Origin: an uncultured Gemmatimonadaceae bacterium
Lineage (GTDB): Bacteria; Gemmatimonadota; Gemmatimonadetes; Gemmatimonadales; Gemmatimonadaceae
Assembly: GCA_963740355.1 (NCBI GenBank)
Contig: CAVUDW010000002.1
Location: 1,952,001 to 2,016,000 of the forward strand
DNA: 64,000 nt
Direction: 5' to 3'
The notes beneath the pieces were generated by a model that worked only from the letters and a program-made list of their open reading frames with translations, was not told the DNA's origin and made no database searches. The position numbers were made by a program, and so were the translations under genes. Below are positions 8,354 to 63,607 of the stretch, in pieces (within the stretch, counting starts at the first letter, position 1; every line of letters begins with the position of its first letter).

Positions 8354-8546
8354 GGCGCATGATTCGGTTGGTCGGTAGACGTACGATCGCGCACGGGTCT
8401 GACAGCGGAGCGGCCGAGTTGATCAGTCGAATTGCGCTTGAACGATGACGCTCGCAGCAAGTCGCCTCACTATCGTAGATGGGTCGTGCGCACTGTGGGC
8501 GCATGTCGATCTCGCCTCAGCTCCCACGCGGACCTATCCTATGGGC

Positions 8547-9101
8547 ATGTCGCAGCCAAAGCGGACGTACACCACGGACGACCTCGACGGGTTTCCAGAC
8601 GACGGCAACCGCTACGAGATCATCGACGGCGAGCTCTTCGTGACGCCCTCGCCACGGCTCTGGCACCAGGCAGCGGTACTCGAACTGGTCGAGAGGATTC
8701 GCCCTTACGCCAAGGCGCTCGGATTGCGGACGTTCGCGGCTCCGACCGATGTCCGCGTGTCCCAGTTCACTCAGGTGGAGCCTGACCTTTTCGTCTATCC
8801 GCGCGTGGACGACGTGGACGCCACGACGCGGTGGGTCACGATGAACCGGCTACTGTTGGCCGTCGAGGTACTGTCTCGATCGACGGCCCGCGTTGATCGT
8901 GGTCGGAAACGCGAGCTGTACCTCGAACAAGGGGTCGAGGAGTACTGGATCGTCGACGTTGATTCCGGCACGGTTGAAGTCTGGTCGCGACACAACGCGG
9001 AAGCACGCATCGAGTCCGAGCGATTGCACTGGCAGCCCATCCCTGAACGCGACGCATTGGTGCTGGATCTGATCGAGTACTTTCGAGACGTGCGCTCGTA
9101 A
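8547..9101 (+). CDS. Uma2 family (PD-(D/E)XK) endonuclease
   Basis: RYEIIDGELFVTPSP..H, EPDL, LAVEVLSRST...K..LY...GVEEYWIVD; TATCCT 6 nt before this ATG suggests a leaderless start. Confidence 0.93.
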   Translation: MSQPKRTYTTDDLDGFPDDGNRYEIIDGELFVTPSPRLWHQAAVLELVERIRPYAKALGLRTFAAPTDVRVSQFTQVEPDLFVYPRVDDVDATTRWVTMNRLLLAVEVLSRSTARVDRGRKRELYLEQGVEEYWIVDVDSGTVEVWSRHNAEARIESERLHWQPIPERDALVLDLIEYFRDVRS

Positions 9102-9163: not shown

Positions 9164-10390
9164 TCAATCCTTGTACGGGTCGAACTCGTTGTCACCCGCC
9201 ATCACGACGATCAGCGGGCGCAGCACGTGCAACACCTCCACCGTCCCCCGCTGCGCGGCCAGGACCTCGGGCAGGCGACGGTACACATGCGGGCTCTCGT
9301 CCACACCGCCACCGCGAAGGATCACACCCTTCTCCCGCACCCAGTCGCGCATCATGTTCGGCGACACCGCGCCTCGGCTCAACTGGCGGCCGGAGCGGAA
9401 GTGACGCTTTCCTGCCGCCGCCGTGCGTGACATCACACGACCGGCGCCATGCACGGTGGAATAGAGCGCCGATTCCTGCAGCGTGACCAACTCGGCTGAC
9501 GCATGATCCGCCGCCAGCCCCTGCACGATGACCGCATCGTCACCCATCGACCCACCAACGAAACCCTTCTGCCCGGGGAAGGCGGGTGTCGCACCCTTCC
9601 GGATGACGACGACCTCCTCGCCGAAGTGCGCTTCCTTCCAGGCGAAGTTGTGGTGGTTGTGGACCAGTTCCAGCTCATCACCACCAAGCAGCGCGACCAC
9701 CTTCCGCGCCACCCACTCGCGGCCGGCATAGGCGTAGGCGCCCGCAAGGTTCATCAGGTGCCAGTAGTCGTGACCGATCGGATCATCGAGGTCGAGCAAC
9801 ACCTCCGTCTCCGGCACCCGCTCACCCCATGCCTTGCCCTGGCCGAGCGCGAGGAAGTTGGAGGCAACCGTATGGCCGAACCCGCGTGATCCGAAGTGCA
9901 CGCCAACCCAGATCGCACCCCGTTCATCCACGAACACGTCCACATAGTGGTTCCCGCTTCCGACCGTCCCGAGTTGCGCCCGCGCCTTGTCGCGCAACGC
10001 CGCCCGGTGCGCGGCCGGCACTGCGTCCCAGGTCGGGTCGTCGAACAGCGCGTGGTCGATTGGTGCGTCATCCGCACGATTCTTCCGACCCATGCCGAAG
10101 CTCACCGTGGCAGAGATTTCATCGGCGAATGTAGTGAGCGCCGAGTGGATCGCTTCGGAATCGCTTCCGAATGAGGCCAGCGTGAGGTTGGTGCGGATCG
10201 CGGCGTTACCGCACGCGATGTCGAAGCCGACGCCCACAACTGAGATCCGATTGTCGTACGCCGCCACACCACCGATCGGCATCACGTAGCCCATGTGACC
10301 GTCGGCCATCAGGGCAGCGTGCTTCGCCTGCGCGCGGATGTGTTCGAACTGAATGAGGGTCTTCTCCTCATGATTTCCAAAGATCGTCAT
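9164..10390 (-). CDS. rtcB: RtcB family RNA 3'-phosphate/5'-OH ligase
   Basis: DGHMGY..PIGG, GFDIACG, GSGNHY, HFGSRG, HNHHN, RKGATPA, HGAGR and DESP motifs; AGGTG RBS. Confidence 0.96.
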   Translation of the reverse strand: MTIFGNHEEKTLIQFEHIRAQAKHAALMADGHMGYVMPIGGVAAYDNRISVVGVGFDIACGNAAIRTNLTLASFGSDSEAIHSALTTFADEISATVSFGMGRKNRADDAPIDHALFDDPTWDAVPAAHRAALRDKARAQLGTVGSGNHYVDVFVDERGAIWVGVHFGSRGFGHTVASNFLALGQGKAWGERVPETEVLLDLDDPIGHDYWHLMNLAGAYAYAGREWVARKVVALLGGDELELVHNHHNFAWKEAHFGEEVVVIRKGATPAFPGQKGFVGGSMGDDAVIVQGLAADHASAELVTLQESALYSTVHGAGRVMSRTAAAGKRHFRSGRQLSRGAVSPNMMRDWVREKGVILRGGGVDESPHVYRRLPEVLAAQRGTVEVLHVLRPLIVVMAGDNEFDPYKD

Positions 10391-10552
10391 CGTACACCTG
10401 CCATCCCTGTGGTAGTGCGCAGCGCTGTCGAGTTGTCGTGATGCGCAATGAAACTGCATGGTGAATCCCGCCGCGCGCCGTGAACCGCGCGCGACGGGTG
10501 CAAGGCACCACTGCCGATTCGTATGGGACCGAATGCGGCAGGACACCATTGC

Positions 10553-10870
10553 TCAATCAGGCTCCCAGGGGCGCTGATTGGCGTTGTCTTCGTCGCGACG
10601 GGCCTTCGCGAATTCGCGGTCGGCAGCGCGTGTTGCAGCCGTCGACTCCACGATCACGTTGACCAATCGGGCTCGCACCCTGATGAGCGAGCCGGTACAG
10701 TCCCGGAACTCGAGCCATTTCGGCTCGACCAGGCGGTTGAAGGTCTTCCGGAGGCAACAAGCGACCTCGCGGGTGACGAACACTCGTCCGAACTCTCCGG
10801 AGACGACGAAGAACTCGTCGTACGGCGGGAATTCGGCGCGCTCGTTCAGCAACTGCAGAATTCTGTTCAT
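10553..10870 (-). CDS. Hypothetical 105-aa protein between the tRNA-like RNA and rtcB
   Basis: MNRILQLLNERAEFPPYDEFFVVSGEFG...RPWEPD; protein-like composition, co-oriented with rtcB. Confidence 0.7.
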   Translation of the reverse strand: MNRILQLLNERAEFPPYDEFFVVSGEFGRVFVTREVACCLRKTFNRLVEPKWLEFRDCTGSLIRVRARLVNVIVESTAATRAADREFAKARRDEDNANQRPWEPD

Positions 10871-10983
10871 GATCGGAGTGTCAGCCAGGCGCTGGCCGCC
10901 GAGGTGGCGAGCAGCTAGCGGCTGTGGAAGTGAATGTTCAAGCCCGCACGTCAAGCGACGTGCGAAATGGAAAGACGAACAAG

Positions 10984-11109
10984 ACGGGCTGGCGGGATTT
11001 GCACCCGCATCTTCGGCATCGTGCTCCGCCGGCTCCTGCCTTCTGCAGGCACTGGGAATTCCGGCGGCGATATCGCGCTCTGAGACTGCCATTGAGCTAC
11101 ACATCCCGT
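10984..11109 (-). ncRNA. tRNA-like RNA with an elongated anticodon arm (Y RNA/YrlA-like or pseudo-tRNA)
   Basis: Minus strand reads ACGGGATGTG-TA-GCTC-AATGGCAGTCTCA-GAGC (D arm), long paired arm, AAGAT, GCGGG-TGCAAAT-CCCGC (T arm), CAGCCCGT (acceptor 3' strand). Confidence 0.75.
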
Positions 11110-11467
11110 TGGCGCGCGGCCAAAACCCATACGCGCCGAAAGTGGTGATCGACAATGCCTGCAACGTGCCGGCAGCGGCGAGTATCGAACATGAGGTGAA
11201 TCCGCCCCCGGAGCGGGGTGGAGGGACACCGCGGGCGCTCCGAGGGTGAAGCGACGTGACAGATGCACAGCGGCGGCGACGTGTTGTCGAGTCGAGTCCG
11301 TGTCGGAGCACGTACGACAGAGGAAAAACACCGGCAGGGGAGTCGCGTGTCTCTCTGCGCGGGATTTCATGTCGTACGCGTCCGTCGAGGATCGCGACAG
11401 CGCGTTCATCCAACCGGATATCCCCGAGACATGAAGGGCCTGATCCGCGGACCTCTCGCGCAGATAC

Positions 11468-11505
11468 AAAACGCCCCACCTGGCACTCGGCGCAGGCGGG
11501 GCGTA
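11468..11505 (-). terminator. Intrinsic terminator
   Basis: ACGCCCCGCCTG...CAGGTGGGGCGT hairpin followed by TTTTGT on the minus strand, just after the small ORF. Confidence 0.6.
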
Positions 11506-11535
11506 GAACGCTCCTTCTTCAGTGCAGAGGGCACA

Positions 11536-11724
11536 CTACGACGTGTGCACCTCGTCCCTGAAGCCTGCGTGGATCCAACCGTTGAGCGCATTCGCGCCCG
11601 AGACGATTAGCTGGTACAACTGCGGTCGGAATTCGCGCTTGCTCATGCACGAATCCAGCACCAGCGCGCGCTGGCAGCTGCCGACGCGCGGGTCCCTCGG
11701 ATTGCGATCAATGAGTGAAGTCAT
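11536..11724 (-). CDS. Small 62-aa hypothetical protein
   Basis: ACAGGAG RBS before the ATG; terminator downstream. Confidence 0.45.
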   Translation of the reverse strand: MTSLIDRNPRDPRVGSCQRALVLDSCMSKREFRPQLYQLIVSGANALNGWIHAGFRDEVHTS

Positions 11725-11968
11725 GCGAACTCCTGTGAACCGGTGAATCGATGGTGTGGTAAATCGCGTGCGGAAACGCAAAATCGCGCCACCGACGTTC
11801 ACGCAACGAAAAGACTCCGTTGGGTTTGAGTTGGCATTGCGATGCGACGGCACCGGCAAGGATCAACTCGTGAACATCGGGACGCGACTCCCAGAGAGAG
11901 CGATCGTAAGCGGGCCAGGATTCGATGTCAAGGGGTGCGTCAAACACCGACGAACCACACCGCGTGGC

Positions 11969-13507
11969 TCAGCGTGTATCGCGCGCCGTGAATGGCTGCT
12001 TCCGGCTCCCAAGCCGATCGTACACACGTCGCGCCGCGGCGACGGTGCCCGGTGCACGTCGCACGGCCCAGATCCGATCCCGTGCGGCGCGCATCGCCTG
12101 CACGTTGTCCACGATCGGCAGTGGATACGTGACGCCGATCTGCACGCCATACATCTGCTGCAGCATCGGCGGCATGCTGTGCGGCTCGGCGAGGGCAGCG
12201 CGCGGAACCGCGGCCAACTCGGGCACCCACTCGCGGATGAACGTGCCATCGGGATCGTGATCGAGTGACTGCTTCACCGGATTGTAGATGCGGATCGCAT
12301 TGATGCCGGTGACGCCCGACTGCATCTGGCACTGGCTGTAGTGAATGCCCGGCTCGAAGTCGAGGAACTCTCTCGCCAGCAGCACACCGGTGAATCGCCA
12401 GTGCAACCACAGGTGGTAACTCGCGAACGACATCACCATCGCACGCATGCGGAACGGCAGCCATCCCGTGGCGCGCACGGAACGCATGCAGGCATCGATC
12501 AACGGATACCCGGTATGACCTTCGTACCAGACTGACAGTCGTTCCGCGTCTGCCGTCTGTTCATCGCGCAGGCCGACGTACGCATCACACATCGTCCTGA
12601 ACTCGAGCGGGGGCTGATCCTCGAGCTTCTGCATGAAGTGGCAATGCCAGCGCAGACGGGAGCGGAAGCTCGAAATGCTCGCGCGCCATCGCGCATCGAC
12701 GTCGTCACCCGAGGCAGGACCATTGGCGAGCTGCTGCAGTCTCGCGCGCGAAGCATGTTCGCAGGTGCGGATGCTGATCGCACCGGTGCTCAGCCAGGCG
12801 CTGAGGCGGCTGCACGCGTCGGGCGCTGTGACGGGGCTCGACATCTCCCGGCGATAATCGACACCACGTTCACGAAGGAAGCTGCGTAGTGTCTCTCTTG
12901 CCACCTGTTCACCACCGTGCTGGAGGCGAGGGCGCGAATGGCGGTGCGTCGCCGACAGCGCGAGTGATGCCGCGTCGTCGCGTTCGGCCAGCGCAACGCT
13001 CGAGAGTCGCCGAGGTGCTGGCAGCGGCGCCGCTGCCATGCGGGCTTCCCAGGCGGTGGCCCATCCGTCACGCGACGGGAGGCGCCTCACCACACCGGTC
13101 TGCGGCAATTCGAGCAACTCGTGGCCATGTGCGCGGCACCATTGGCGGACGGTGCGGTCACGCTGGTAGGCGAGCCATCCCGTCGTCTCCTCGTGCGCCC
13201 AGATCGAGGTGATGCGCGACGGCTCTGCAGACTGCGCGAGCTCGCCCTGGATCGCTGCCAACACCGACGTCACCTCGCCTGTTCGCCGGTGCAACACGAC
13301 ACCACGCTCGGCGAGCGACTCGGTTAGGTCGTCGAGGCATTCGAGCACCAGACCCAGATGCCTCGGATCGTGGTCTGGGGCCTCCATCAGCGACGGCTCG
13401 TGGATGTAGAGGCACAGCACGGGCCCGCGCGCGGCCGCCGCCGTCAGTGCAGCATGGTCGCGGATTCGGAGGTCGCGCTTGAACCAGACGAGATGGATGT
13501 CACGCAT
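11969..13507 (-). CDS. Cryptochrome/deoxyribodipyrimidine photolyase family protein
   Basis: VWFKRDLRIRDH, CSRLSAWL, TGYPLIDACMR...GWLPFRMRAM, FLDFEPGIH and DPDGTFIREWVPEL motifs. Confidence 0.95.
   Translation of the reverse strand: MRDIHLVWFKRDLRIRDHAALTAAAARGPVLCLYIHEPSLMEAPDHDPRHLGLVLECLDDLTESLAERGVVLHRRTGEVTSVLAAIQGELAQSAEPSRITSIWAHEETTGWLAYQRDRTVRQWCRAHGHELLELPQTGVVRRLPSRDGWATAWEARMAAAPLPAPRRLSSVALAERDDAASLALSATHRHSRPRLQHGGEQVARETLRSFLRERGVDYRREMSSPVTAPDACSRLSAWLSTGAISIRTCEHASRARLQQLANGPASGDDVDARWRASISSFRSRLRWHCHFMQKLEDQPPLEFRTMCDAYVGLRDEQTADAERLSVWYEGHTGYPLIDACMRSVRATGWLPFRMRAMVMSFASYHLWLHWRFTGVLLAREFLDFEPGIHYSQCQMQSGVTGINAIRIYNPVKQSLDHDPDGTFIREWVPELAAVPRAALAEPHSMPPMLQQMYGVQIGVTYPLPIVDNVQAMRAARDRIWAVRRAPGTVAAARRVYDRLGSRKQPFTARDTR

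Positions 13508-63533: not shown

Positions 63534-63607
<74 letters not shown>

Follow-up and report, generated by a model that had tools for sequence, protein, structure and literature searches.

A tRNA-like small RNA upstream of rtcB in soil Gemmatimonadaceae and its putative kinship with bacterial Y RNAs

We analysed a stretch of 64,000 nucleotides (nt) from an uncultured Gemmatimonadaceae bacterium (contig CAVUDW010000002.1, positions 1,952,001 to 2,016,000 of the forward strand), called the window below. On its minus strand, a structured RNA precedes a small open reading frame (ORF) and rtcB (Table 1). At related loci, rsr, the gene of the TROVE protein Rsr (Ro60), is also found. An earlier note, made from the letters of the window, had flagged bases 11109..10984 as a tRNA-like RNA with an extended anticodon arm. 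These bases proved to be the core of a larger structured RNA of 158 nt (11139..10982). The conserved RNA begins 30 nt further 5', with a hairpin that the note had missed (11137..11111). This small RNA is genuine and conserved among soil Gemmatimonadaceae, and its fold is backed by covariation.

Table 1. Features at the RNA locus, in window coordinates unless a related locus (L) is named.
Feature	Position	Strand	Description
Whole conserved RNA	10982..11139	-	5' hairpin, then a tRNA-like cloverleaf whose anticodon arm is replaced by a rod
5' hairpin P0	11111..11137	-	7-base-pair (bp) stem, 3-nt 5' bulge, 3-bp stem, 4-nt loop
Acceptor-like stem, 5' strand	11100..11109	-	ACGGG, bulge AU, GUG; pairs with 10991..10984
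U8-A9-like dinucleotide and D arm	11077..11099	-	UA GCUC AAUGGCAGUCUCA GAGC; 13-nt loop
Rod in place of the anticodon arm	11014..11075	-	62 nt, three segments
Rod apex	11037..11054	-	bulge CAG, stem UGCCU/AGGCA, pentaloop GCAGA
Variable region AAGAU	11009..11013	-	5 nt; with the preceding GCCG, forms GCCGAAG
T arm GCGGG-UGCAAAU-CCCGC	10992..11008	-	G instead of U at T-loop position 55
Acceptor-like stem, 3' strand	10984..10991	-	CAG CCCGU; no CCA encoded after it
Downstream hairpin	10945..10964	-	CGCACGUC-GCUU-GACGUGCG; 20 nt 3' of the RNA, no U tract
Small ORF	10553..10870	-	105 amino acids (aa), between the RNA and rtcB, family unassigned
rtcB	9164..10393	-	RNA 3'-phosphate ligase, 409 aa from the conserved start; frame open from 10549
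Second-type RNAs	L082:1413-1547, L033:1100-1232, L075:1110-1232, L074:1537-1661, L027:1345-1491, L037:1107-1236, L037:1276-1409		before rsr

Fold and conservation of the RNA

The whole RNA gives a full-length covariance-model match of 165.8 bits and is single-copy in its genome. In the eight sequences from the genus, the limits of conservation coincide with its two ends, the 3' acceptor strand being immediately followed by unconserved sequence. When just these 158 nt are folded, the minimum-energy structure (-66.0 kcal/mol) is the consensus cloverleaf. The single-sequence fold of a badly bounded piece of 146 nt is no better than those of its shuffles (z -0.22). All the elements listed in the earlier note are present on the minus strand: the U-A dinucleotide, the D arm (11097..11077), the strands of the rod, AAGAU, the T arm, the ACGGG/CCCGU pairing and the missing CCA. 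Predicted ORFs also overlap the RNA: on the minus strand they have 308 and 172 aa, on the plus strand 223 and 74 aa. Because alignment indels are not multiples of three, these ORFs are taken as high-G+C artefacts.

BLAST against 61 related genomes identified seven full-length homologues, all from the same genus and with ~80% identity. When the eight same-genus sequences were given to RNAalifold unguided, the same cloverleaf was obtained, with 51 pairs, of which 9 are compensatory. A covariance model (R1) then retrieved members in other genera of Gemmatimonadaceae and upstream of close RtcB homologues. Over 30 distinct genome loci, 93.6% of the cells are paired and 34 of the 51 pairs have changed on both sides. 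The five measures computed were not reached by a single one of 500 column shuffles, and sliding the 3' partners by 1-3 columns leaves 35-48% of the cells paired. Compensatory pairs are present in all ten helices. This alignment was fitted to the covariance model, which favours structure somewhat. An independent set was drawn from metagenomes, with contigs picked by the 5' hairpin motif only (109 stretches matched, 80 fetched, 71 full-length). The 64 distinct sequences of this set have 92.9% of their cells paired and compensatory changes in 26 of the 51 pairs; the 5' hairpin is invariant there through its selection. Over both sets, slid controls are paired at 34-48%. Covariation across homologues, which the earlier note had named as a check, is thus found in both sets.

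The 5' hairpin P0 (GGCGCGU-AUG-GGU-UUUG-GCC-GCGCGCC) is the most sequence-conserved part of the family. Within the 30-locus set, five of the seven pairs of its outer stem have changed on both sides and 99.5% of the cells are paired. The acceptor pairing ACGGG/CCCGU is present as noted earlier, but the stem does not end there. After these 5 bp and a 2-nt AU bulge it goes on for three more pairs, one of which is a G.G mismatch in the window sequence. Both parts of the stem (helices 3 and 4) show compensatory change, in 3/5 and 3/3 pairs of the 30 loci. In the D arm, GUAGCUCAA..GAGC is nearly invariant across the family and the stem is 100% paired at the 30 loci. The D loop ranges from 3 to about 45 nt.

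The rod starts with an 8-bp base helix, followed by a 4-nt 3' bulge (AGCA), a 7-bp helix and an AA internal loop. Beyond this loop, a helix of 4 bp and a 3-nt bulge on the 5' side lead to the apical stem of 5 bp, which is closed by the pentaloop. Its strands are CGAUAUCG/CGAUGCCG, CCGCCGG/CCGGCGG and, at the apex, UGCCU/AGGCA. Compensatory change affects 5/8, 5/7, 4/6 and 3/3 pairs of the rod helices (6-9) at the 30 loci, and is repeated in the metagenome set. The earlier note had read CUGCAGA at the tip as a possible cysteine anticodon loop. This reading does not hold, as the apex is a variable pentaloop rather than a 7-nt loop: GCAGA in the window, GACGA, GAAGA, GAUGA or CGAAA in other members. 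It is better described as a GNNGA or CGAAA pentaloop. In the T stem, four of the five pairs are compensatory and 99.3% of the cells are paired (30 loci). The T loop opens with UG in most members, and the canonical UUCGAAU loop is found in one of the 30. As stated in the note, the T arm differs by one base from that of the tRNA-Met at 63534. A hairpin follows the RNA (Table 1); other members of the genus have a different hairpin at this position.

By the record titles of the RtcB loci, the family belongs to Gemmatimonadaceae. A search of 120 genomes from the rest of the phylum with a second covariance model revealed no clear member. It gave a single match of 48 bits and 108 nt, whose score and length are like those of the model's cross-matches with tRNA-Pro(GGG). 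Viral contigs contain no match to the 5' hairpin pattern, and a phage origin is therefore not indicated. The family is common in soil and rhizosphere Gemmatimonadaceae. It has been missed by Rfam 15 and by tRNA finders, so that its loci are annotated as empty or as spurious ORFs.

Comparison with decoding tRNAs

With ARAGORN at default settings and Rfam at gathering thresholds, the tRNA-Met at 63534 was the only find in the window. At E<=10, Rfam returned nothing in 10600-11500 nor in 11100-12000, including no match to the tRNA model (RF00005). The YrlA model did not match at this threshold either. This pair of models had been put forward in the earlier note; the strong standard YrlA match that would have pointed to a known class did not appear. 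The Rfam tRNA model at E<=0.1 also gave no match at the position of the RNA in 6/6 Rsr-linked loci carrying it. The note had further named an ARAGORN run with introns allowed. At a relaxed threshold, such a run does call a tRNA-Glu(CUC) with a 61-nt intron at the RNA, but alongside a spurious intron-bearing tRNA in the neighbouring stretch.

This call, the tRNA order of the domains and the adjacent rtcB would suit the intron-like precursor proposed in the note, that is, a pre-tRNA whose long arm is removed as an intron and whose ends are re-ligated by RtcB. The missing CCA is no objection. It is uninformative, since most genuine tRNA genes of this genome are also without an encoded CCA. We nevertheless consider such a precursor highly improbable. 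Default ARAGORN and the Rfam tRNA model fail, and the one positive run also made the spurious call. All rod helices covary, apex included, and removing the rod would leave neither an anticodon stem-loop nor a bulge-helix-bulge. The bulges of the rod are one-sided only, with no bulge-helix-bulge among them. At its tip there is neither a conserved 7-nt loop with U33 nor an anticodon loop on a 5-bp stem. The acceptor is bulged. U at T-loop position 55 is universal in tRNA, and a G is found here. A search for the splicing endonuclease (tRNA_int_endo, PF01974) was negative in the genome (94.5% complete) but positive in four archaeal control genomes. The tRNA set of the genome is already complete, with 50 genes and 44 anticodons for all 20 amino acids, including Cys-GCA, Glu-CUC, Gly-GCC and Pro-GGG. 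Finally, the RNA occurs in genomes without RtcB. We conclude that it is no decoding tRNA and no intron-bearing precursor.

The RNA probably arose from a tRNA gene, as suggested by its resemblance to tRNA-Pro(GGG). After the true members, the next-best matches of the covariance model are genuine tRNA-Pro(GGG) genes (six of six checked). In other genomes, these genes have an acceptor and a T arm almost identical to those of the RNA. In a crude alignment to the 50 tRNAs of the genome itself, tRNA-Pro(GGG) did not stand out; the best score was that of tRNA-Met, owing to its T arm. The link to tRNA-Pro therefore rests on the covariance-model matches in other genomes. An origin by duplication of a tRNA gene, which these matches suggest, would also be expected of a decaying pseudo-tRNA or of a functionless tRNA fragment. 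Such a relic is hardly credible here. It is refuted by the compensatory changes in all ten helices, and the RNA is conserved across many genera and in more than 100 metagenome contigs, with its loops and its 5' hairpin kept.

The tRNA-Pro(GGG) genes of six genomes (L038-L043) have a stable hairpin of differing sequence 0-3 nt before their 5' end. Conserved from genus to genus, this leader hairpin is similar to the 5' hairpin of the RNA described here.

Gene neighbourhood and transcription

The rtcB product of the window matches PF01139 at E 1e-61 and is the only RtcB of the genome. In the genus, rtcB is downstream of the RNA at 8/8 loci and the small ORF is present at four of them. RtcB is encoded in 10 of the 20 genomes of the genus. 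Eight of these also carry the RNA, next to rtcB in each case, and the other two do not. TROVE is absent from this genome and from all 20 genomes of the genus. RtcR was not found in this genome.

In other genera, the RNA heads cassettes with the order RNA-rsr(TROVE)-small ORF-rtcB (L075, L082, L083). It also lies upstream of rsr on the same strand at L026, L033, L037 and L032, and directly before rtcB in further genera. Among the 30 genome loci, seven have rsr downstream, 16 have rtcB or the small ORF plus rtcB without rsr, and four have neither; the remaining three are cut by a contig end or lie outside the examined set. For the 71 metagenome members, the corresponding numbers are 16 with rsr, 15 with the small ORF or rtcB and no rsr, and 40 with neither, the last group including, without separation, contigs with a short downstream flank. 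When at least 1 kb of downstream sequence is present (36 members), 10 have rsr, 10 the small ORF or rtcB, and 16 neither. In the linked metagenome cases (31/31), the cassette is downstream on the same strand, and the RNA is located 7 to about 800 nt before its first ORF. One metagenome locus, L228, has rtcB just upstream of the RNA. The Ro protein has been lost in this genus, yet its RNA belongs to the Ro/RtcB RNA-repair gene cluster.

The 105-aa product of the small ORF has no match in Pfam or NCBIfam, and its nearest Atlas clusters are hypothetical proteins of Gemmatimonadota. tblastn matches were obtained in 27 of 80 RtcB loci. Homologues are found in many Gemmatimonadaceae loci, where rtcB follows them and either rsr or the RNA precedes them. 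This Gemmatimonadota-specific protein, a regular member of rsr-X-rtcB cassettes, is therefore a candidate new partner of RtcB or Rsr. On the other side of rtcB, just 3' of it and convergent, a gene for a putative endonuclease of the Uma2 family (PF05685) occupies 8445..9101 on the plus strand.

No sigma-70-like site was found within 130 nt upstream of the RNA at any of the 30 loci. As the RNA has no sigma-70-type promoter of its own, it would be transcribed together with the cassette. A tRNA-shaped leader acting in cis from the 5' untranslated region, rather than a free RNA, could then control the rtcB operon, for instance through tRNA-handling enzymes or damaged-tRNA sensors. Such a leader would explain why the RNA has no promoter and why it lies on the same strand as the first cassette ORF and upstream of it, both in the 31 linked metagenome cases and at the 8/8 genus loci. 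Moreover, a genome without RtcR needs another regulation of rtcB. We regard this explanation as unlikely. The RNA precedes different first genes (rsr, the small ORF or rtcB), and it is followed by unrelated genes in genus g43 and in 16 of the 36 metagenome members with enough flank. Some genomes lacking RtcB or Rsr carry it as well. Co-transcription itself is not discriminating, since known Y RNAs are also co-transcribed with rsr; according to PMC4201824, the Y RNA of Mycobacterium smegmatis is processed from a single precursor with it.

A sigma-54-like promoter motif of the RtcR type (CGGCACG..GGCA, at about 11166-11151, minus strand) was considered and dropped, because it lies within a window-specific insertion of ~50 nt in a genome without RtcR. 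The nearest promoter-like site in the window (TTGACA-17-TACGAT, 11931..11903, minus strand) is 764 nt upstream of the first base of the RNA. It opens a separate conserved unit (11931..11466, minus strand), which continues with a leader of ~170 nt containing conserved hairpins, a 62-codon ORF and a terminator. The ORF (11724..11536, minus strand; MTxLxxR..P..G.C.R...HAGF) is open and of the same length class at 8/8 genus loci. It has no match in Pfam or NCBIfam. The unit ends with CUGAAGAAGGAG and a strong hairpin with a U tract (11504..11466). Right after the promoter, at ~11895..11880 on the minus strand, the 11-base word GGGAGTCGCGT is found. Its reverse complement ACGCGACTCCC stands beside a CAGAGAGA run at 11359..11342 (minus strand), about 200 nt upstream of the RNA. 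Upstream of the RNA, CGCGACTCCCC-N3-CCGG is also present in other genera (L028, L030, L031). This recurring word could be an operator, part of an unusual promoter or a site of long-range RNA pairing.

Probable kinship with bacterial Y RNAs

To our knowledge, bacterial Y RNAs are known almost solely as permuted YrlA RNAs and as the Yrn RNAs of Deinococcus. As defined by Chen et al. (2014, PMC4201824), a YrlA has a GNCGAAN0-1G motif near its 5' end and nearly invariant T and D stem-loops. Between T and D stands a loop-closed acceptor-like stem, the paired ends form the presumed Rsr-binding stem, and the gene is located <=4 kb from rsr on the same strand. Most YrlAs are called circularly permuted tRNAs by Wang et al. 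(2018, bioRxiv 10.1101/312249).

Several features of the RNA recall YrlA. Its D-stem GUAGCUCA..GAGC (GCUC/GAGC, with GUA before) and its T-stem GCGGG/CCCGC are those of the consensus line of the YrlA family (RF02553), and these stem sequences are conserved in most of the 30 members. Relatives encode the RNA next to rsr and rtcB on the same strand. A long helix stands at the position of the anticodon stem, and a GNCGA-type motif, a possible equivalent of that of YrlA, is found in most family members. The tRNA mimic surmised in the earlier note is thus supported by the YrlA-like D and T stems and by the homologues directly upstream of rsr and/or rtcB. We think it rather probable that this non-decoding, tRNA-derived RNA is the Gemmatimonadaceae counterpart of the tRNA-mimicking YrlA-type Y RNAs of Ro60(Rsr)/RtcB repair cassettes. 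By its sequence and predicted fold, it would be a new, un-permuted variant of tRNA-mimicking bacterial Y RNAs, with putative binding partners. The RNA was not found in the literature searched and is absent from Rfam 15. The names "Gemmatimonas" and "Gemmatimonadetes" do not occur in the searchable supplementary files of PMC4201824.

The main difference from YrlA is the order of the domains. As the earlier note had observed, it is that of a tRNA: acceptor 5' strand, D arm, rod, variable region, T arm and acceptor 3' strand, with an open acceptor and a loop-closed rod. YrlA, in contrast, is permuted, its acceptor is closed by a loop and its ends lie in the Ro-binding stem. A model of permuted YrlA therefore has no match here. 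The RNA also has an extra conserved 5' hairpin, and the V arm is missing. A further difference is that rsr is not within about 4 kb of the RNA in the window; it is for 7 of the 30 genome and 16 of the 71 metagenome homologues.

The motif of YrlA, presumed to contact Rsr, can be sought at two places. The earlier note had pointed to GCCGAAG before the T arm. This heptamer lies at the base of the rod in the window and its CG takes part in conserved stem pairs. Being mostly paired within a covarying stem, it is at best one of several Ro-type candidates. The second place is the apex of the rod. The window apex GCAGAAGG is without the C of GNCGAAN0-1G, and other members carry GACGAAGG, GCCGAAAG or GACGAGGG. 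A relaxed expression, GNCGAR(N)G, is matched at the apex in 64 of the 71 metagenome and 19 of the 30 genome members, not in this genus. Candidate Rsr-binding elements would thus be GCCGAAG, the apical motif and the 5' hairpin.

Several observations weigh against kinship with Y RNAs. The idea that the apical GNCGA motif tracks Rsr had to be rejected, because the motif is kept equally in Rsr-linked, RtcB-only and orphan members, so that Rsr is not singled out as its reader. The determinants of the tRNA elbow are not kept: the GG of the D loop is not conserved, and most members have a G at T-loop position 55, which makes pseudouridine 55 impossible. The RF02553 model (gathering threshold 69 bits) has no match at the locus in a 901-base scan at E<=10. 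Its best matches elsewhere in the genome reach 28 bits and overlap tRNA genes. The native tRNA order and the loop-closed long helix account for this failure. The strong terminator 11504..11466 sits between the only recognisable promoter and the RNA. Among the well-flanked metagenome members, 16 of 36, largely from one unrelated syntenic site, are linked to neither gene; the neighbours at this site are genes for a glycine transporter, a cytochrome c, a 3-keto-disaccharide hydrolase and a disulphide isomerase. Two genomes of this group (G072 and G136, 95% and 90% complete) carry the RNA without TROVE and RtcB, which means that it can persist without either protein. Lastly, the RNA was found at 13 of 80 close RtcB loci and not at the other 67 (E<=0.001), so it is not required by RtcB.

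If the RNA is such a Y RNA counterpart, it could be released from the cassette transcript by tRNA-end processing. RNase P would cleave at the acceptor 5' end, after which the 3' end would be trimmed and a CCA perhaps added. Relatives with Rsr may show a division of roles like that proposed for YrlA, in which Rsr is bound by the rod or the 5' hairpin and a second factor by the tRNA-like half. In this genome without Rsr, the RNA might act with RtcB, with the 105-aa protein or with a general tRNA-binding factor. It could serve as a cofactor or scaffold for ligation, or as a decoy in RNA repair. As a decoy, it would offer anticodon nucleases a tRNA-like target that they are unable to cut, since it has no anticodon loop. 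That the RNA outlived Rsr here, and both proteins in another genus, points to a partner other than Rsr.

We tentatively raise a further possibility, which we find less likely than the kinship itself: the family may be a natively tRNA-ordered, Ro-independent Y RNA lineage, possibly an un-permuted ancestor form of permuted YrlA. If so, the tRNA-like scaffold would have its own job with RtcB or a tRNA-binding factor, outlasting the loss of Ro. Its retention under structural selection in genomes that lost Rsr, and in some cases RtcB as well, provides a natural experiment to separate Ro-dependent from Ro-independent roles of the scaffold. The sequences of the family also give concrete material for tests of how tRNA genes gave rise to permuted YrlA.

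Other known RNAs resemble the present one in part. In Yrn1 of Deinococcus radiodurans, as presented in PMC4201824, the D-like and T arms are placed opposite to those of YrlA, and a stem-loop stands between them at the position of the anticodon arm, which is the order of our RNA as well. Yrn1 is also made from a polycistronic precursor with a tRNA, and several relatives of our RNA lie behind tRNA arrays. By that description, with which the comparison was made, Yrn1 has its long Ro-binding helix at the acceptor position, where the 5' and 3' ends pair, and its "anticodon arm" is a short 5-bp stem with a 6-nt loop. Here, in contrast, the terminal helix is short and bulged and the rod is internal. 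The YrlA of M. smegmatis, which is cleaved by RNase P and tailed with CCA, becomes a tRNA-like Y RNA with an open acceptor, a topology that is directly encoded here. There, however, cleavage of the closed loop yields two RNA pieces, according to the same source, whereas our RNA is a single chain.

The b7a-tRNA is a predicted tRNA-ordered RNA found beside RtcB and occasionally beside Rsr, according to bioRxiv 10.1101/312249. It is described there as strongly resembling an authentic tRNA and as linked to a Band-7 protein, whereas the RNA of the window fails tRNA detectors. The four Band_7 genes of the genome (at 99 kb and 234 kb of C2, and on C3) are far from the locus (1.963 Mb of C2). The b7a-tRNA set of Burroughs and Aravind (2016) may still overlap with our family, the two being set apart by description.

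In Rsr-linked relatives, a second type of RNA is located just upstream of the first (Table 1). These RNAs are above-threshold matches to the Rfam tRNA model (41-52 bits). They have a normal 7-bp acceptor, a D arm and a T arm with a canonical UUCGA loop, and carry an insert of 50-70 nt in the anticodon region. The insert contains GGGCCGA(N)GG..GAGG.UUAUCG, which resembles the 5' motif of YrlA and its YUAY. At L037, two second-type units stand in tandem before the window-type RNA. The match of the YrlA model at this locus runs from the 3' half of one unit into the 5' half of the next; at 31.7 bits, it is below threshold. An origin of permuted YrlA from a "dimeric pre-tRNA" has been proposed (bioRxiv 10.1101/312249), and the match across the junction has the arrangement of that proposal.

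At several loci (L037:283-1093, L033:629-1094, L082:1085-1311, L027:130-661, L032 and L029), the Y-like RNAs and rsr are immediately preceded by arrays of up to eight tRNA genes. A tRNA-Arg(ACG) gene stands beside the RNA at five loci (L029, L032, L033, L037 and L074).

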